A stretch of DNA of 63,189 nucleotides from Candidatus Falkowbacteria bacterium (GCA_012800315.1 JAAZJO010000004.1:1-63189); one strand, 5' to 3'; positions 50,134 through 59,053 are shown, counted from the stretch's first letter. Notes: a model not told the origin generated them from the letters alone. Translations and numbers: made by a program.

Positions 50134-52011
50134 ATGAAAGACATAATTATTAATATTCTAAGAATTTTTACTAAATTGCTAAAATACGCTCTGATTACTG
50201 TCATCGGGCTTTTTTTTATTTCAGTAATTTTATTAAGTGGAACAATTCGTGATTTTAGAGCAGCTTATCTTTCTGGCTTAGAGGGGAAAAATCAATTAAC
50301 AGAAGCATTTGCTCAGTTGAAATCAGGAAATTACGAGGAAGCTTTAAGGAATTCGCAGTTAGCTAATCTTAATTTTAATGCTTCTTTAGAAAGACTTAAT
50401 TCAGTTCAAAATAATATTTTTGTTAAAAAAATTTCTCTTTTCCGCACTCAGGTAAATTATCTAGAATATCTTTTTAAGACCACTGAAATATTAAGCAGTT
50501 CTTTGGAACGCTCAATTCCTCTTGTTAAGCAATTAGAGGAAATTAGTGGTGGGAAAGTTGGCAATAGTTTTGCTAATCTGGATAACCAAAATAAAAGTAA
50601 GTTTTTACAATTACTTTATGAGTCTGGCCCAGAAATTAATGGTCTAAAAGCTAATTTAAAGTTAGCTCTATTTAATATTGATAAGATTCATAAAATTAGT
50701 ATTTTATGGCCAGTTTATGGTCAAATAAGTGAATACAAAACCCAACTCCAAGAAGTTTCGTTTTTGCTGGAAAAAATAAGTTCATTAATACAAGTTTTAC
50801 CAACTTTAAGTGGTTATCCAGTAGAAAAAGAATTTTTAATTCTTTTACAAAATAATGATGAGTTAAGACCAACCGGAGGATTTATTGGTGTTTTTGGTTT
50901 AGCTCATGTAAAAAATGGCAATATTATTTCTTTAAAGACCAGTGATAGTTATCATCTAGATATGCCGGCTGTCAATAAATGGCAAAAAGAGCCACCGGCG
51001 CCATTAAAAAAATATTTAGAGGTAGAAAATTGGTATTTGCGTGATGCTAATTGGGTACCTGATTGGCCGTTAGCTGCCCAAAAAATAAATGAGATTTACA
51101 CTGGAGAAAGTTTAGCTATTGGTCAAGCAGCTCCTAATTTTGCTGGTATTATTGCTGTTAATCCCGATTTTGTGGGTGGTTTATTAAACTTAGTCGGTCC
51201 AATTAAGGCTAGTGGTGAGGAATATAATGCCCATAATTTTCAAGAATTATTGCAATATAATGTTGAGGTCGCTTATAAAGATCGTGATATTTCTTCTTGG
51301 GACCGCAAGGAAATAATTAATGAATTATTAGAGGAGTTAAAAACTCGTTTATTTAATTTATCCTCAAATCAATGGGTTGATTTAGCAAAAGTGATAACTG
51401 AGGCAATAGAGAGAAAAGATTTACAAATGTATTTTTTTGATTCAACCTTAGAAGAGTTAGTAAAAAATATCGGGGCAGCTGGGGAAATGAAGCAAACAGA
51501 TAGTGATTATTTAATGGTGGTTGATGCTAATTTAGCTGCCTTTAAAAGTGATGCGGTAGTTAAGAAAAAAATTGATTATAATCTTAGTCAGCGAAATAAT
51601 AAGACTACAGCAACCTTAACCTTAAATTATCGTCATGAAGGTGATTTTGATTGGCGAACAACTCGCTATCGCAGTTATACTAGAGTATATTTACCTTATG
51701 GTAGTCGCTTGATTACTAGTTCTGGCTTAGATAAAAACAAGGCGGATTGGAGTTCTACTGATGATCAGCTTTTAAATAAAACTGTTTTTGCCTTCTTTTT
51801 TACCGTTGAGCCAGGAACAGAAAAAGAAATTAGCCTTAGCTATTCTTTACCAGAAAGTATTAATCAGCAAATGACTGCTGGTACTTATAATCTTTTAGTC
51901 CAAAAACAATCTGGTCGGCGAACACAGGAATTGACGGTGACCATTAGTCCAGAAAAAGGTGGTGTTAAAAATTGGGTAACTGATTTATGGACTGATAAAT
52001 TTTTTCAATAA
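50134..52011 (+). CDS. DUF4012 domain protein
   Basis: N-terminal TM segment; LLQNNDELRPTGGFIG; LRDANWVPDWP. Confidence 0.85.
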   Translation: MKDIIINILRIFTKLLKYALITVIGLFFISVILLSGTIRDFRAAYLSGLEGKNQLTEAFAQLKSGNYEEALRNSQLANLNFNASLERLNSVQNNIFVKKISLFRTQVNYLEYLFKTTEILSSSLERSIPLVKQLEEISGGKVGNSFANLDNQNKSKFLQLLYESGPEINGLKANLKLALFNIDKIHKISILWPVYGQISEYKTQLQEVSFLLEKISSLIQVLPTLSGYPVEKEFLILLQNNDELRPTGGFIGVFGLAHVKNGNIISLKTSDSYHLDMPAVNKWQKEPPAPLKKYLEVENWYLRDANWVPDWPLAAQKINEIYTGESLAIGQAAPNFAGIIAVNPDFVGGLLNLVGPIKASGEEYNAHNFQELLQYNVEVAYKDRDISSWDRKEIINELLEELKTRLFNLSSNQWVDLAKVITEAIERKDLQMYFFDSTLEELVKNIGAAGEMKQTDSDYLMVVDANLAAFKSDAVVKKKIDYNLSQRNNKTTATLTLNYRHEGDFDWRTTRYRSYTRVYLPYGSRLITSSGLDKNKADWSSTDDQLLNKTVFAFFFTVEPGTEKEISLSYSLPESINQQMTAGTYNLLVQKQSGRRTQELTVTISPEKGGVKNWVTDLWTDKFFQ

Positions 52012-52029
52012 AGTAGAGATATTTTTTGT

Positions 52030-53328
52030 ATGAATATTTTTCTAATTTCAACCATCATTTTACTATTAATTATTATTGCCTTTCAGCCCAAGATTGGTAT
52101 TTATTTAATAGCCGCCTGCTTGCCGATAATTGGGCGAGATATAAACTTATATGGACTAGTTATTCCAATTTCTGATTTAGTGGCTTTATTAACTTTATAC
52201 GGCTTTGTAATAAATTTATTTTACCGAGTTATTTTTAAACCCAAAGATTGTATTAAAATAACTTGGCCATTATTTTTTCCCTTTTTAATCTTTTTCTTGA
52301 TGAATATTTTGTCAATTATTTTTTCTGCCAATCCCGCCTATTCTTTTTATTATTTTTTACGTTGGCCATTTTTTCTTTATGTTGCTTATATTTTTGTTCC
52401 AGCCAATGTTATTGTTGATACCAAAACCTTAAAAAATACGGTAGTGATTGTTTTTTTGAGCGCAATGGCAGTTTTATTTTCTGGTTATTTATCTTTAATT
52501 GGACAAGATTGGCAAAATAGTTTTTTCCGCTTAAAATCTGTTTATTTTTGGGGCGCTTATCCTTTTGGTGATAACCACAATTTAATTGCCGAGTTTTTAA
52601 ATATTGGCGTTTTCTTTGTTTTAGTGATTAAAGAATTTTTAAAAACCAAAAGAGGGAAGCGAGTAGCAAATATTGTTTTTTTCTTAACAGCTCTAGGAAT
52701 TATTTTAACTTTTTCGCGCGCTGGCTGGATTACTCTATTTTTACAGTTAGGAATTTATTTATTTTTCTGGACTAAAAATGATCGTAAAAAAAAGTTATCT
52801 ATAGCCATGTTTGCTCTTTTAGGAGTTGTGATTATTTCGCCCTTACTTTGGAAAATGAGCGTGCTTCAAGATAATAATACTAGCTCAACTGAGAATCGTC
52901 TTTTATTAACTGAAATTGCCTGGAACGCCTTTAAGGAAAAACCCCTCTTTGGTCATGGTAGTGGAGAGTTTATTAATTTAGTGGGCAATAATATTCGTTT
53001 TGTGGCTAAATATGGTGCACCGATTGATTCCCATGGCGCCTTACAGAAAGTTTTAGCAGAAAATGGTATTTTAGGCTTAATAAGCTGGTTGTTTATTTTA
53101 GCTTATCTAGCTAGATTTAGCTTTTTAGCTATTAAAAAATATTATCCAAAAGTATCCTGGGTCCTACCTTTTGCCCTAGCAGCACTCGGTGGAATATTTT
53201 TTCAATTTTTTAATACCTCATATTTCAAGGGGCGAGTCTGGTTTCCTTTAACTCTTTTTTACTTAGCGATAAAATTTTCTGAACAATTATATGTCAAAAA
53301 AAATAAAGATTCTTCACGTCTTACCTAA
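52030..53328 (+). CDS. O-antigen ligase (Wzy_C)-family membrane protein
   Basis: LTFSRAGWI, NRLLL..KPLFGHGSG, DSHGALQKVLAENGILG. Confidence 0.82.
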   Translation: MNIFLISTIILLLIIIAFQPKIGIYLIAACLPIIGRDINLYGLVIPISDLVALLTLYGFVINLFYRVIFKPKDCIKITWPLFFPFLIFFLMNILSIIFSANPAYSFYYFLRWPFFLYVAYIFVPANVIVDTKTLKNTVVIVFLSAMAVLFSGYLSLIGQDWQNSFFRLKSVYFWGAYPFGDNHNLIAEFLNIGVFFVLVIKEFLKTKRGKRVANIVFFLTALGIILTFSRAGWITLFLQLGIYLFFWTKNDRKKKLSIAMFALLGVVIISPLLWKMSVLQDNNTSSTENRLLLTEIAWNAFKEKPLFGHGSGEFINLVGNNIRFVAKYGAPIDSHGALQKVLAENGILGLISWLFILAYLARFSFLAIKKYYPKVSWVLPFALAALGGIFFQFFNTSYFKGRVWFPLTLFYLAIKFSEQLYVKKNKDSSRLT

Positions 53329-54424
53329 TTTAAGTCAGGGAGGCGCAGAAAAAATTTGCCGTGAACTTTTACTGAAAATTGATCCAGAAAAATTTTCTTC
53401 TGCTCTTTTATTATTTAAAGATAATAATTCAGTTCAAGTGGGTAGAGAAGAGTTGTTAAATAATAATATTGAAATAATTTCTTTGCGTAAAAGATGTTTA
53501 TTTGATTTGTTTAATTTTTGGAAAATAATAAAGGCGATAAAAAAATATCAGCCAGATATTGTTCACACCCATCTCGGAGGGGATATTTATGGCCGTCTAG
53601 CAGCCAAATTAGTAGCCGTACCGATAATTGTTTCCACTGAACATAATTTAAATAACAGTGAACGTCGCTTAGCTACTATCGCTAAAAAAATTACTGCTCG
53701 TTATGCTACTAAAATTTTTGCTGTTTCTGAAGCAGTGAAAAAAGATGCTCTTAAACGGTACAATATCCCGACAAAAAAAATAGAAGTTATTTATAATGGA
53801 ATAGATATTACTGAGTTTAAAGCTAATAATTTTAAAACTAATGATTTAAAAAACGATGATTTAATTGTCTTTGGCGCCTTAGGTCGCTTAACGGAGCAGA
53901 AAGGATTTGCAACTTTGATTGAGGCAGCTGCTCAATTAAAAAATAAAAATTATTTACTTAAAATAGCTGGTGTTGGCGAGTTGGCAGAAAAATTAAATAA
54001 AAGAATTACTGAATTAGGTTTAAATAAACAAGTTCAATTAGTGGGGGCAGTTAAAGCAGCTGATTTTTTAGCTAGTTTAGATATTTTTGTTTTTCCTTCA
54101 CTTTGGGAAGGTTTGGGTTTAGCTATTTTAGAAGCTGGCGCTTTAGCTAAGCCAGTAATTGCTAGTGATATTGATGGTATTAAAGAAGTTTTAAATGATG
54201 ATAATGCTTGGCTTTTTCCGGCCGGTGAAATAGATAAATTGGCGGCCAGAATGGATTTTGTGATGACCAATTTAGAAAGCGCGGCAGTTAAAATAAAAGC
54301 GGAAAAATTAAAAAATTTAATCAATAAGCATTTTAATTTAGATCTTATGATTGAGGCTTATAGAGAGTGGTATGAAATTTTACTTTTAGAGAAATCGCTT
54401 ATTAAAAATGATGTAAAAAAATAA
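53291..54424 (+). CDS. Glycosyltransferase family 4
   Basis: GGAEK, GRLTEQKG, PSLWEGLGLAILEA. Confidence 0.9.
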   Translation: MSKKIKILHVLPNLSQGGAEKICRELLLKIDPEKFSSALLLFKDNNSVQVGREELLNNNIEIISLRKRCLFDLFNFWKIIKAIKKYQPDIVHTHLGGDIYGRLAAKLVAVPIIVSTEHNLNNSERRLATIAKKITARYATKIFAVSEAVKKDALKRYNIPTKKIEVIYNGIDITEFKANNFKTNDLKNDDLIVFGALGRLTEQKGFATLIEAAAQLKNKNYLLKIAGVGELAEKLNKRITELGLNKQVQLVGAVKAADFLASLDIFVFPSLWEGLGLAILEAGALAKPVIASDIDGIKEVLNDDNAWLFPAGEIDKLAARMDFVMTNLESAAVKIKAEKLKNLINKHFNLDLMIEAYREWYEILLLEKSLIKNDVKK

Positions 54425-54428
54425 TTAT

Positions 54429-55679
54429 ATGCGTATTCTTCAAGTCAATAAATTTTATTATTCTCACGGCGGAGCTGATAAATACTTTCTTAATTTAACA
54501 GACGCCTTAAAGAAATCTGGACAGACAGTGGCTGTTTTTTCGATGACTCACCCGAAAAATTTGGCTAGTGAATTTAAGCAATATTTTGTTTCGCAAATTG
54601 AATTTAATAATGCCTCTTTAAGTGATAAATTAAAAGCGCCGGGGCGAATAATTTATAGTTTAGAGGCAAAAAGAAAGTTTAAAAAACTAGTTAATGATTT
54701 TCAACCAGATATTATTCATGTTCATAATATTTACCACCAAATTTCACCCTCAATTTTAGATGTGGCTAAGCGAAAGAGAATTCCGGTGATCATGCATTTA
54801 CATGATTATAAGTTACTTTGTCCGAACTATCAATTATTTACTCAAGGACAAACTTGTGAAGCGTGCCGGCCGAAAAAATATGGTCAATGTGTACGAAAAA
54901 AATGCTTTAAAGAATCGTTAGCTAAAAGTTTCTTGGCTAGCAGTGAAATGTTTATCCATCATTCATTATTAAAAATATATAAAAAAAACATTACTCTCTT
55001 TATTGCTCCAAGTAATTTTATGAAAAAGAAAGTGGTGGGGTTTGCTTGGCCTGCTGATAAAGTTAGGGTGGTTGTTAATCCTTTTTCTATAGATGAAGAG
55101 ACAGGGAAGGAGCAGGGGATAGAGAAAAATAAAATATCAACAGCGGAAGATTATTTATTATACTTTGGTCGCTTGTCAAAAGAAAAGGGAATTGAAACTT
55201 TAATTAAGGCAGCAGCGTTAACTAAAACTAAGGTAAAATTGGCTGGTACTGGTCCGGAGGAACTGAGATTAAAGGAGGCAGCTAAAATAACAGGCGCCCG
55301 AGTTGATTTTTTAGGTTTTAAAAATGGACCAGAATTGCGCCAGATAATCACTAAAGCTAAAGCGGTGCTTATTCCCTCAATTTGGTATGAAAACATGCCC
55401 TTAAGCCTCCTAGAGGCCCTTAGCCTAGGAAAAATAGTGATAGCCGCTAATATTGGTGGTTTGCCAGAAATTATTCATAATGGAGAAAATGGATTTCTAT
55501 TTGAACCTCAAAATATTGAGGATTTGAAGACTAAAATTTCCTTACTAGATACTCTTGATGAAGAGAAAAAACAATCTATTCAAAAGCGCGCCAAAGAGAG
55601 CGTAGCTCACTTAACCCCCGAAAATAATCTCAAAGAAATTTTAAATATCTATCAAGAGATTTTGAAAAATAAAAAATAA
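54429..55679 (+). CDS. Glycosyltransferase family 4
   Basis: YFGRLSKEKG, PSIWYENMPLSLLEA. Confidence 0.9.
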   Translation: MRILQVNKFYYSHGGADKYFLNLTDALKKSGQTVAVFSMTHPKNLASEFKQYFVSQIEFNNASLSDKLKAPGRIIYSLEAKRKFKKLVNDFQPDIIHVHNIYHQISPSILDVAKRKRIPVIMHLHDYKLLCPNYQLFTQGQTCEACRPKKYGQCVRKKCFKESLAKSFLASSEMFIHHSLLKIYKKNITLFIAPSNFMKKKVVGFAWPADKVRVVVNPFSIDEETGKEQGIEKNKISTAEDYLLYFGRLSKEKGIETLIKAAALTKTKVKLAGTGPEELRLKEAAKITGARVDFLGFKNGPELRQIITKAKAVLIPSIWYENMPLSLLEALSLGKIVIAANIGGLPEIIHNGENGFLFEPQNIEDLKTKISLLDTLDEEKKQSIQKRAKESVAHLTPENNLKEILNIYQEILKNKK

Positions 55680-55759: not shown

Positions 55760-57037
55760 TTATCTAACTTGAAAAGAGATACTATAGCTTAATTCTGAAT
55801 CGTTGCCGGTAACTTTTATATCATAAACACCGTTGGCGACATTTGGCACTTTAATTTTAGTTGAGAAGCGACCACGATAATCAGTGGCTATATTTTTTAA
55901 AGAGGCATTATTAAAACTAAGATTCACTTCTTCTTGTGGCAAGAATCCGCCACCAGAGACTAAAACCTCTGAATCAACTGTGGCCATATTATGATTTAGA
56001 TTTAGGAACAGGCTTTCTAAAGGATAAATTTCCGCTTCGGCAGTTGCTGTTAGAGAGGCAATTTTATCAAGTTTATCATCTAAAACTAAGATATTAGAAT
56101 TATTGAAAATAATAATTTTATCTCCTTGATTATAAACAACTTTTAAGCCCATGGCCCAGCCAGCATAACCACCTAAATTACCAGTCCAAGCATAATCTTC
56201 TAAGCCCATTTCACTATTAAGTTTAACTACACCAACTCCATTAGAAAAATAAACATGATTAGTTAAGCCACTAGCTGCCATATCAAAACCTTGATAATCA
56301 AGATGAGTAAAGGAGCCTAATAATTTTCCGTTTAAATCAAATTTTTTTGCTTGATAATCATCTACTACATAAATATTATTATTAAGATCTTGATAAGCGC
56401 GACGATTTCCTTTTTCAAATTTAAAGTTAAGTGGTATTTGGGTAATAATGGAATCTTTATTAATGTCATAAATTAGTAAAGCACTTTCTTCTTCATCAAC
56501 ACTTAACAAAAATTGATCATTGCCACTGATATTATAAGGGGCGTTAATATTTTTAAAATCATAAGCAACAATTGATTCTAAATCAGTATTATATACTTTT
56601 ACTCCTTTAGCACTAATAGTTATTAATTTATCACCAATCTTATCAACACGGTTATGCCATTCCCAAAAAGAATTAGTGGTTTTTTTAACTAACTCAAAAT
56701 TAGTTCCAATAATTTCATATTTATAAATTGTATAGTTGCTGACAGCATAAACATACAAGTGATCATCCTCTGTAGAAAACTTAGCATCAAAAAACTTCCC
56801 ATAAGAATTAAATAGGGAATTATAGGGACGTATTTTAGTTAAAGGTACTAATTCTTTATCGGCTAATTTAAAAATTTCTAAACTGCCAGTATTAGTAGTT
56901 ACAATATAAACATTATTTTGATACGATATTGCATCACCAGAATAATAGGATTGAGTAATACTTTCTCCTGGCTTAACAATAAAGAAGATGGAAATCAGGG
57001 ACACTAGGACCACTGAAAAGATTATAATTTTTTTCAT
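55760..57037 (-). CDS. Secreted/anchored beta-rich (propeller-like) protein with C-terminal Ig-like domain
   Basis: N-terminal hydrophobic segment, repeated 4-strand units, C-terminal VSGGGFLPQE..TD..G.F...I.VP....G.Y.I.V.G. Confidence 0.45.
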   Translation of the reverse strand: MKKIIIFSVVLVSLISIFFIVKPGESITQSYYSGDAISYQNNVYIVTTNTGSLEIFKLADKELVPLTKIRPYNSLFNSYGKFFDAKFSTEDDHLYVYAVSNYTIYKYEIIGTNFELVKKTTNSFWEWHNRVDKIGDKLITISAKGVKVYNTDLESIVAYDFKNINAPYNISGNDQFLLSVDEEESALLIYDINKDSIITQIPLNFKFEKGNRRAYQDLNNNIYVVDDYQAKKFDLNGKLLGSFTHLDYQGFDMAASGLTNHVYFSNGVGVVKLNSEMGLEDYAWTGNLGGYAGWAMGLKVVYNQGDKIIIFNNSNILVLDDKLDKIASLTATAEAEIYPLESLFLNLNHNMATVDSEVLVSGGGFLPQEEVNLSFNNASLKNIATDYRGRFSTKIKVPNVANGVYDIKVTGNDSELSYSISFQVR

Positions 57038-57168: not shown

Positions 57169-57978
57169 ATGGAATTCCATGACTTTTTAGCTTTAATTAA
57201 GAGAAAAAAGCAAACAATCCTGGTTATTATGTTAATTGGGATTGTGCTTACAGCAATTGCTTCTTTAGCGCAAACAATGAAGTATAGCACTCATTCTCGT
57301 CTTTTAGTGGTGCAAAACTCGGTTGGGGATGATACTTATGCTTTATCAAAATCTAATGAATATTTAGGTAATTTGTTTGCAGAAATTATTCGCTCCAGTT
57401 CATTTTATGATCAAATATTAAATTCTAATTTAAATATTGATCGTAGCTACTTTGCTGGAACTTATGGTCAGCAAATAAAAAAGTGGCAAAAAACTGTAGA
57501 AACAAAGACCCAAAGTAATACTGGAATTATTGATGTTACTGTTTATCATCCAAATGTTCAGGAAGCGAAAAAAATAGCTTTAGCTATTAATAATATTTTA
57601 ATTAGTAGTAATCAAAATTATCAGAGCGGACAGAGCGTGAGAATAAATATTATTGATCAACCATTATCATCTGCTTATCCAACTAAACCAAATTTACCTT
57701 TTAATCTTTTAGCGGCTACTTTAATTTCTTTATTTCTAGCTCTCTTCTATATTTATATTTTTCCAGAAGAAAAATATGATCTTCATCTTATTAATAAAAG
57801 AAAAAAGAAAGTTAAAAAATTAAATAAAAAGATGGCTGGATTATTAGAATATGAAACTGCAAAATATGGAGAAATAAGCAAAGAAGTAGTTGAGACTGAA
57901 AGAGAAGCAGCGGAAACCAAAACAACGGAAGAGTCTGATCAGTTAAGTGGTGATATTAGAAATATTATTGGGCGATAA
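57169..57978 (+). CDS. Polysaccharide chain-length determinant (Wzz/CpsC/YveK-like)
   Basis: Two TM segments; YSTHSRLLV, IIDVTV.HPN..A..IA, IIDQP....PTKPN. Confidence 0.85.
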   Translation: MEFHDFLALIKRKKQTILVIMLIGIVLTAIASLAQTMKYSTHSRLLVVQNSVGDDTYALSKSNEYLGNLFAEIIRSSSFYDQILNSNLNIDRSYFAGTYGQQIKKWQKTVETKTQSNTGIIDVTVYHPNVQEAKKIALAINNILISSNQNYQSGQSVRINIIDQPLSSAYPTKPNLPFNLLAATLISLFLALFYIYIFPEEKYDLHLINKRKKKVKKLNKKMAGLLEYETAKYGEISKEVVETEREAAETKTTEESDQLSGDIRNIIGR

Positions 57979-58005: not shown

Positions 58006-58033
58006 TTGACAAAAATAGAAAAAGTATTATAAT
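58006..58033 (+). promoter_or_regulatory. Sigma70 promoter
   Basis: TTGACA-16-TATAAT. Confidence 0.7.
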
Positions 58034-58093
58034 TAAATGAAAAACTTTTTATAGTTTTCAAATAAAAGTACATTAACAATTAAAATAAATATA

Positions 58094-59005
58094 ATGAGAA
58101 AGGTACTATTGCTGGTTTTAACCATATTGTCCGCGGCTTACGCCGTGGGGCAGGGCACAAAAAGTGCTAGGCCCTTGGTTGAATACCGAGGGACAACTAT
58201 GGTCTCCGTTTTTGCCGGCGGACACGTCGCGCAAAAAAATGTGAACAACCGGGGTGATTGGTACGGAGTTTATTTGGAGCATTTACCGCTCCAGCTTCTC
58301 ATTTCCGAATATAAACATTTGAACTTGGGCTTAGCAGCCCTAGCAGCAAAAAGTTTATACGAAGGAAATGATCAGGAGCATAAAAACTCCAACACCGATT
58401 ATTCCTTCGGTTTCGGTTTTAGCGGCGGTTTTTATAACTACCGCTTTTCTAAGAATTCTGCCATTTATATTGGCGCCAACTCTTTAATAAAGAGGGGGCA
58501 AGAAATCATAAATGGTAGAACTTCCGAGAGTGCCGGCAGATATCTGGCTGACGGTCAGTACATAATCTGGTCCTCAGAACTGAATATCAACGTCATGAAG
58601 ACGTATGAGTCAGGTTTGAAGAACTGGCCACGTACTCAGTTACGGCTAGTATATCAAAAGCCACTGCGAAATGAACGTGATGCTTTTTGGGATGCTGTGC
58701 CGCTGTCTGAGTCTACAATTTGGGACAAGACAGTGTACATGAGCGAGCTAAAAGCTAGTCTCTATCGCTATGGGAAAAGAGTTATACTAGAACCAAAAGT
58801 TATAGCTGGTTATCATTTCTATGAAGGTGATAATAGCCAGTGGATAATTGCTGGTCTAGAGCTTGCACTAAGGAAGTTTAATTGGGACGACTTTTTGTCT
58901 GTCTCATTCTCTCTAAAACGTCAGGTTGGAAATTATGCTCCAAACTTGAACGAAACCCAATTTCTTTTGGGTGTAAATTTTATGCCTTTTAACTTAAAAA
59001 GGTAG
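58094..59005 (+). CDS. Secreted hypothetical protein, predicted outer-membrane-type beta-barrel; elevated GC
   Basis: Signal peptide, many amphipathic beta-strands, C-terminal QFLLGVNF strand. Confidence 0.5.
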   Translation: MRKVLLLVLTILSAAYAVGQGTKSARPLVEYRGTTMVSVFAGGHVAQKNVNNRGDWYGVYLEHLPLQLLISEYKHLNLGLAALAAKSLYEGNDQEHKNSNTDYSFGFGFSGGFYNYRFSKNSAIYIGANSLIKRGQEIINGRTSESAGRYLADGQYIIWSSELNINVMKTYESGLKNWPRTQLRLVYQKPLRNERDAFWDAVPLSESTIWDKTVYMSELKASLYRYGKRVILEPKVIAGYHFYEGDNSQWIIAGLELALRKFNWDDFLSVSFSLKRQVGNYAPNLNETQFLLGVNFMPFNLKR

Positions 59006-59053
59006 GAGATTGGTTGAAATTAATTGTTAATATGATTGTAAAAAAAATTAGAA

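Follow-up and report, generated by a model that had tools for sequence, protein, structure and literature searches.

A single locus in a Candidatus Falkowbacteria genome raises the question of how a bacterium treated as having one membrane comes to encode a protein of the kind that is built into a second. The window analyzed here, a stretch of 63,189 nucleotides (GCA_012800315.1, JAAZJO010000004.1:1-63189) with an overall guanine-plus-cytosine (GC) content of 0.343, is the entire contig C16 of a 633,746-base, 17-contig genome whose estimated completeness is 97.75%. At positions 58094 to 59005 on the plus strand, it holds a gene for a 303-residue protein predicted to be a 12-stranded outer-membrane-type beta-barrel. 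To our knowledge, every known single-chain outer-membrane barrel is installed in a second membrane by Omp85/BamA. A large part of bacterial diversity belongs to the Candidate Phyla Radiation (CPR), whose members count as monoderm in studies of how the outer membrane arose and was lost. Judging from gene order and the distribution of relatives, the best explanation of the barrel gene is that it is a native, vertically inherited envelope-protein gene of one Falkowbacteria-type CPR family. As for its function, the reading we prefer, with somewhat less than an even chance of being right, is that the barrel folds at the surface of the producing cell, unaided by the beta-barrel assembly machinery (BAM), into a hydrophobic layer, where it would be held by its operon partner p254 and serve as a passage or anchor for a glycopolymer.

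The N-terminus of the protein, MRKVLLLVLTILSAAYAVG followed by Q, is a cleavable Sec signal peptide conserved across the barrel family. It comprises residues 1 to 19 (58094 to 58150, plus strand), with cleavage predicted from the sequence between AVG and Q, and since it contains no Cys, it is of the signal peptidase I type. Cys is absent from the mature protein too, and Gly, Asn, Tyr, and aromatic residues are abundant in it. A sequence-only reading of the window had proposed an outer-membrane-type barrel with a signal peptide cleaved before Gln; that cleavage site is confirmed, and all the peptides it quoted from the protein are present, each at its expected place in the open reading frame (ORF). 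Known sequence families are of little help in naming the protein. It has zero Pfam or NCBIfam matches at E<=1 and none in PHROGs or among PDB sequences, which leaves it outside the curated outer-membrane protein families of Pfam and NCBIfam. A profile of the barrel family likewise has zero matches to PDB sequences, and hhalign of the family against Escherichia coli Tsx found nothing. Weak Pfam matches, to Autotransporter or to the lipid A deacylase PagL, occur in only 3 of 48 family members, all of them distant. Neither a paralogue of the barrel nor a PF13505 barrel was found in its own genome.

From an alignment of 11 sequences (the query and ten homologues), AlphaFold2 returned a model of 12 long antiparallel strands with a mean predicted local distance difference test score (pLDDT) of 80.9 and a predicted template modeling score (pTM) of 0.76. 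The turns on one side are mostly short (2, 2, 10, 7, and 4 residues) and the long hairpins lie opposite, a modeled layout that matches outer-membrane proteins. Searching the PDB with this model, Foldseek gave 96 matches at E<=1e-3, and the best 50 of these are all outer-membrane barrels or barrel-containing outer-membrane complexes, mostly at a probability of 0.9-1.0. The top matches are 12-stranded autotransporter beta-domains (E 3e-9 to 1e-5, template modeling score [TM] 0.45-0.66), among them Hbp (3aeh; E 3e-9, TM 0.52-0.55) and BrkA (3qq2; TMt 0.66), while FadL, OmpG, AlgE, PelBC, and PgaA follow at lower TM. From these global matches to 12-stranded barrels, we infer that the modeled barrel is closed. 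In a strand-parity analysis of 48 family members, the outer face is 0.58 lipid-compatible versus 0.36 for the inner face, a pattern seen on all 12 strands, and the inner face, besides being more polar, shows stronger conservation (entropy 2.10 versus 2.41 for the outer face). The last strand, QFLLGVNF, is followed by MPFNLKR; G-x-N-F-x-P-F is conserved in 11 close homologues, and neither Phe nor Trp stands at the end of the chain. Thus, the predicted strands and the structural matches support the proposal that the ORF encodes an outer-membrane-type beta-barrel candidate. We also considered a barrel enzyme of the OMPLA, PagL, PagP, or omptin kind and rejected it, since there is no invariant catalytic His/Ser set and OMPLA is not among the top Foldseek matches.

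A barrel-like fold need not lie in a membrane. The protein might be associated with the wall or secreted, with its hydrophobic belt buried by oligomerization or by the binding of lipid-like ligands (candidates are lipid-linked intermediates of the glycan and lipids that the cell takes from a host), or the prediction might be partly wrong. We consider this unlikely, because all 50 of the listed Foldseek matches are integral outer-membrane barrels or complexes, mostly at the high probability given above, the lipid-compatible face is consistent on all 12 strands across 48 sequences, and the invariant His/Ser triad of barrel enzymes is missing. In its favor are the FadL-type lipid transporters among the Foldseek matches, the weak PagL matches in distant members, the shallow alignment behind the model, and the lack of BAM and of a known outer membrane in the producer.

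The lack of BAM is borne out by genome searches. Omp85/BamA (PF01103) was found neither in the window genome nor, above threshold, in 60 further genomes of the same GTDB family, a survey that covered 16 genera and included some single-contig assemblies; diderm controls were positive. LptD, LpxC, and MotA_ExbB gave no match above threshold in the window genome and 20 relatives. The sequence-only reading had taken the genome to be that of an apparently monoderm CPR bacterium, from a group generally described as lacking a typical outer membrane and BAM, and the searches support a small CPR genome without Omp85/BamA/TamA, LptD, LpxC, or ExbB. The barrel thus differs in its producer from the outer-membrane beta-barrel (OMBB) class, whose producers have an outer membrane and Omp85/BamA. 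CPR cells are treated as monoderm in the literature (10.1101/2021.05.31.446380; PMC8871954). Our literature search found no paper on outer-membrane-like barrels in CPR. The cytoplasmic membrane is the only bilayer known to be available, and the barrel could enter it from outside to act as an anchor or as a channel that is plugged or gated; p254 and the lipoprotein p380 (both described below) are anchored in this membrane too. However, an open 12-stranded pore would dissipate ion gradients, and the long spacer of p254 would be pointless with a partner in the same membrane. Moreover, we know of no beta-barrel in a bacterial cytoplasmic membrane, and we regard this arrangement as quite improbable.

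To whom does the barrel belong? A word-indexed search returned 10 relatives, and an exhaustive search of 1.84 billion representatives returned 55 clusters, nearly all of 264-343 residues, plus two short fragments. Named relatives are Patescibacteria or Candidatus Falkowbacteria metagenome-assembled genomes (MAGs). Within the GTDB family of the window, the barrel profile matches 38 of 61 genomes and 9 of 16 genera; in a sample of the class, it matches 9/9 genomes of this family versus 1/392 others, the latter a partial match. G448, at least, was scored as negative yet holds a divergent copy, and therefore the true distribution is wider than the detected one. As far as profile matches indicate, the barrel family is found only in one GTDB family of Patescibacteria, of the Falkowbacteria type.

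All sampled barrel contexts, from 93% down to about 25% identity and including the weakest matches (E 1e-5 and 7.6e-4), share one glycan locus with the order DUF4012, Wzy_C, two GT4 glycosyltransferases, p426, a Wzz/CpsC-type co-polymerase, the barrel, a 240-280-residue partner, GT4, and a lipoprotein, followed by CorA, WecG-NUDIX, and GluRS where the sampled loci extend far enough. In the window, DUF4012, the Wzy_C polymerase/ligase, and the two GT4 glycosyltransferases occupy 50134-55679 on the plus strand. The Wzz/CpsC-type polysaccharide co-polymerase (57169-57978, plus strand; Pfam Wzz E 8.9e-6, TIGR01006 E 1.2e-13) lies directly upstream of the barrel gene, and the downstream glycosyltransferase, GT4b (59940-61025, plus strand), has a low GC content at third codon positions (GC3) of 0.185. 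Between the two groups of upstream genes, on the minus strand at 55760-57037, stands p426, an exported or membrane-anchored beta-rich protein of about 425 residues without family assignment, which adjoins the barrel gene in the most divergent loci.

The barrel has diverged together with these neighbors. In most barrel loci, GT4b shows 53-87% identity, and in the most divergent genera 42-50%; the corresponding figures for p426, one of the better conserved genes of the locus, are 53-72% and 35-49%. Identity of the barrel to that of the window correlates with the corresponding identity of GT4b (Spearman 0.73, p 1e-4). The barrel evolves much faster than GT4b, with 33-41% identity where GT4b has 53-69%, and this fast divergence fits surface exposure. 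Serotype-like switching of cassettes, considered as an explanation for the two classes of score seen within genera, was rejected, since barrel identity tracks that of GT4b and p426.

The sequence-only reading had regarded the gene as acquired, possibly from Bacteroidota, and had raised the worry of a chimeric assembly. Its grounds were Gln at +1 after signal cleavage and a GC content above that of the flanks. Recent foreign acquisition or a chimera would indeed account for a GC and GC3 of the barrel gene some 3-4 standard deviations above the genome mean, for Gln +1, and for the gene's own promoter and terminator. However, the locus order is common to more than 20 independent assemblies, which excludes a chimera, and the barrel diverges with its neighbors. 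All sampled relatives lie in the CPR glycan locus and none was found outside it. In a MAG labeled 'Marivirga' (Bacteroidota), the match sits on a 3.7-kb contig with the CPR gene order, and in 400 genomes of the class to which this MAG is assigned, the barrel profile has zero real matches and two marginal N-terminal ones. The labels 'uncultured Gammaproteobacteria bacterium', 'Bacillota bacterium', and 'Marivirga sp.' all occur on contigs with the CPR glycan-locus order (L007, L008, L012-L015, L018, L021, L024, L027, L010, and P0028/L040), and such bins are probably mislabeled or contaminated.

Gln at +1 (Gln20) is nearly invariant in the barrel family, and cleavage between Ala and Gln was counted in at least 12 further signal peptides predicted from the window genome; such cleavage is therefore usual here and does not point to import. 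Examples of such signal peptides, which resemble the Bacteroidota 'Q-rule', are those at C7:10231, C7:11938, C1:69557, and C13:23224. With Ala-Gln cleavage common among the genome's own secreted proteins, Gln +1 loses its value as a sign of Bacteroidota, and a Bacteroidota origin was rejected on this ground together with the profile search and the CPR order of the oddly labeled contigs.

The GC excess itself is real. The four 60-base counts made by hand are exact (34/60 at 58141-58200 and 24/60 at 58561-58620 in the barrel gene, 14/60 at 60541-60600 and 17/60 at 50161-50220 outside it), and the GC content is 0.428 for the barrel gene (GC3 0.444), 0.480 for p254 (GC3 0.459), and 0.402 for p380 (GC3 0.409), in a genome whose ORFs have a mean GC3 of 0.26 with a standard deviation of 0.05; the genes flanking the barrel set lie at 0.185-0.28. 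The proposed rise in C-ending codons was also found, but G-ending codons are raised as well. Moreover, orthologues of the barrel, p254, and p380, and a small p254 paralogue, exceed the GC content of their neighbors in most AT-rich relatives, whereas in GC-richer relatives all of these equal the background. Since synonymous sites are saturated at 25-40% protein identity, the excess must be maintained and is not a remnant of transfer. Recurrence in most orthologues from AT-rich relatives, and a genome-wide Gln +1, thus turn the two original grounds against recent acquisition, which we judge very improbable indeed.

A sigma-70 promoter (TTGACA, 16 nucleotides, TATAAT; score 12/12) precedes the barrel gene at 58006-58033 on the plus strand, an intrinsic terminator follows p254 at 59827-59852 (plus strand, reading as a terminator on both strands), and promoter scoring places a second perfect sigma-70 promoter, for GT4b, at 59891-59919 on the plus strand. 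From these three elements, it follows that the barrel gene and p254 form a two-gene operon. Barrel relatives keep the extended -10 element (TGTATAAT) at a similar distance. The 634-kb genome has 14 perfect promoters of the form TTGACA-N16-18-TATAAT, 8 of them preceding an ORF, and 6 of these 8 precede ORFs from the extreme high end of GC3 (C1:11506, C5:24370, C5:122533, C7:32922, C15:1421, and the barrel gene). The GC excess therefore coincides with promoter strength. Some of the high-GC3 ORFs behind perfect promoters may overlap RNA genes. Simple translational selection for high GC3 is unsupported, as G-ending codons rise too and ribosomal-protein genes reach only 0.32-0.34.

In the leader of the operon, a conserved motif, ACATTAACAATT, lies at 58070-58081 on the plus strand, about 22 nucleotides upstream of the barrel ATG. 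Its 11-mer CATTAACAATT has four copies in the genome, two of which sit 23 and 25 nucleotides upstream of the barrel and p380 starts; the copy before p380 is at 61041-61051 on the plus strand. An inverted copy, TTAACAATTAA, falls at 59020-59032 on the minus strand, inside the 48-nucleotide gap between the barrel gene and p254. Upstream of most barrel orthologues, ACATTAACA(A) is kept even at 20-25% protein identity. The shared motif suggests that the barrel and p380 are probably co-regulated. The barrel leader has no Rfam match and no stable structure, and it lacks a Shine-Dalgarno sequence, in a genome nearly free of them (a Shine-Dalgarno-like 4-mer precedes 13 of 452 ORFs versus 31 in an in-gene control) where start codons are generally preceded by A/U-rich leaders. 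High GC3, a consensus promoter, and an unstructured A/U-rich leader fit an abundant barrel protein; ribosomal-protein genes are only modestly enriched in GC3.

The operon partner, p254, is encoded at 59054-59818 on the plus strand. In the AlphaFold2 model, residues 3-35 form a membrane helix and residues 51-85 another helix, after which a disordered spacer rich in Pro, Ala, and Thr (86-148) leads to a C-terminal domain (149-254) with a pLDDT of 93-98 and no significant Foldseek match in the PDB or BFVD. The sole sequence hint is a weak PHROG match of residues 9-88, the anchor and coil, to an Rz-like spanin (E 0.0026). Since p254 orthologues use either a membrane helix or a lipobox, what is conserved is their attachment to the cytoplasmic membrane on its outer face. 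Relatives of p254 adjoin the barrel gene across the family, and the two co-occur, with 28 genomes having both, 10 the barrel only, 5 a weak p254 only, and 18 neither (Fisher p 1.4e-4). We rejected p254 as a TonB/TolA homologue, given no significant Foldseek match and no MotA_ExbB in the window genome and 20 relatives. Between Wzz and the barrel, many relatives have one more GC-rich gene, of about 165 residues (for example L004:9317-9820, L009:5270-5767, and L016:5261-5791); in several of them it is a detectable p254 paralogue, and it is absent from the window.

The lipoprotein p380 (61066-62208, plus strand; GC3 0.409) has the lipobox LVA followed by Cys and evolves fast. Its orthologues (L001, L004, L009, L011, L016, and others) keep the acidic motif C-E-x-V-[DE]-F directly after the lipobox Cys at an overall identity of only 22-61%. 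The protein has no Pfam, NCBIfam, or PDB match, and no OPX domain (Poly_export/SLBB) was found in p380 or p254. Where no barrel was detected in a genus, GC3-rich lipoproteins follow GT4b, and several of them start with C-KK-[DE].

These parts can be assembled into the mechanism we prefer. The barrel is predicted to be exported by Sec as a single chain of 12 strands, with an outer belt that is hydrophobic and an inner face that is polar and better conserved. It is likewise predicted to be transcribed together with p254 from their own strong promoter, and p254, seated in the cytoplasmic membrane, to bear its globular domain at the far end of a coiled coil and a long, flexible spacer. The genes for the barrel, p254, and p380 are embedded in the Wzy/Wzz-type surface-glycan locus. 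After export, the barrel would fold without BAM at the surface of its own cell, in a layer made of lipid or hydrophobic in some other way, and p254 would keep it at a distance from the cytoplasmic membrane. For the glycopolymer that the neighboring genes make, the barrel would be the distal passage or the point of anchoring.

A membrane-competent fold in a cell with no receiving membrane of its own kind also invites a different destination. A presumed epibiont might export the barrel into the membrane of a partner cell as a pore or anchor, with p254 or the lipoprotein tethering the two cells, and so reach host metabolites. The fast divergence of the barrel, as for host-interface proteins, its restriction to one clade, and a p254 spacer long enough to bridge a gap would all suit such a role. 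However, the gene always stands in the producer's own glycan-synthesis locus and never beside a secretion or contact system, and p254 and p380 are both anchored to the producer's own membrane. In addition, no monomeric 12-stranded barrel is known to us that enters a foreign membrane from the outside. A barrel aimed at a partner cell seems to us an improbable explanation.

Several observations weigh against a barrel in a layer of the producer's own. An outer membrane or lipid layer is not known from CPR cells (10.1101/2021.05.31.446380; PMC8871954). A route for synthesis or transport of outer-leaflet lipids was not seen in the genome, though no survey of lipid genes was made. The predicted fold derives from 11 sequences, the C-terminus (..NFMPFNLKR) departs from the canonical beta-signal with a terminal aromatic residue, and the distal and proximal parts of the barrel do not differ significantly in variability (p 0.16), on which account hypervariability of surface loops was rejected. 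The barrel is undetected in 7 of the 16 genera of its GTDB family. The C-terminal domain of p254 has no likeness to TonB, TolA, or OmpA by Foldseek, and known polysaccharide-export barrels have 16-18 strands versus 12 here. We advance the full claim only tentatively and hold it to be rather doubtful as a whole, namely that a family of Patescibacteria assembles a lipid-embedded single-chain barrel without BamA, spaced by p254 and coupled to a Wzy/Wzz glycan pathway. If it were true, cells called monoderm would own an unrecognized outer layer or trans-envelope device, or would plant the barrel in the membrane of a partner cell.

A conserved and evidently functional barrel family in a lineage without genes for BamA, LptD, and lipid A can be accounted for in three ways: BAM is dispensable for the assembly and use of barrels, these cells own an undescribed envelope layer, or the barrel protein acts on a partner cell. 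The sequence-only reading had offered insertion into a host outer membrane, a pore, or an unusual envelope, and all three functions are still candidates. An outer layer of the cell's own, its own membrane, and a host membrane are all candidates for the membrane of the barrel, and the question is testable. Importantly, the barrel, the tether, the lipoprotein, and their shared leader make up a marker set by which such envelopes can be sought in metagenomes.

Compared with known systems, the predicted barrel resembles 12-stranded outer-membrane barrels, yet it comes from a producer that is not a BAM-bearing diderm and it lies outside their curated families. The best structural matches are the beta-domains of type Va autotransporters (Hbp 3aeh, NalP 1uyn/1uyo, EspP 2qom/3slj, BrkA 3qq2, and AIDA-I 4mee), with which it shares 12 strands, a size of about 280 residues, and a Sec signal peptide. 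Unlike them, it has no passenger or pore-filling helix, only about 15 residues (20-34) preceding strand 1; its identity to autotransporter sequences is 10-13%, Pfam PF03797 does not match it, its producer lacks BamA/TamA, and its gene stands in a glycan locus. Another comparison is with the mycolata, where the porin MspA forms a beta-barrel pore in the mycomembrane of bacteria lacking Omp85. MspA, however, is a multi-chain goblet and not a single-chain barrel, and mycolata make mycolic acids, nothing comparable to which is expected in a 634-kb genome whose lipid genes were not surveyed. The partner p254 is built like TonB, TolA, and the phage Rz i-spanin, anchored in the membrane at its N-terminus, extended by a coiled coil or a Pro-rich stretch, and carrying a globular domain at its far end; unlike in TonB and TolA, its C-terminal domain has no TonB_C/TolA fold, the genome has no ExbB/TolQ motor, and some orthologues are anchored by a lipobox. 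Finally, the polysaccharide barrels of diderms (AlgE, PgaA, BcsC, and PelB) cross a real outer membrane and usually have TPR or OPX partners, whereas the neighbors of the barrel described here have no TPR or Poly_export domains, and AlgE, PgaA, and PelB match it in Foldseek at a TM of only 0.2-0.3. In genetic setting they are alike, as these barrels too are encoded in Wzy/Wzz-type or other glycan export loci beside a co-polymerase and a lipoprotein, and Wzi and the Myxococcus Wzp porins, which pair with OPX proteins, are further barrels of surface-polysaccharide pathways.

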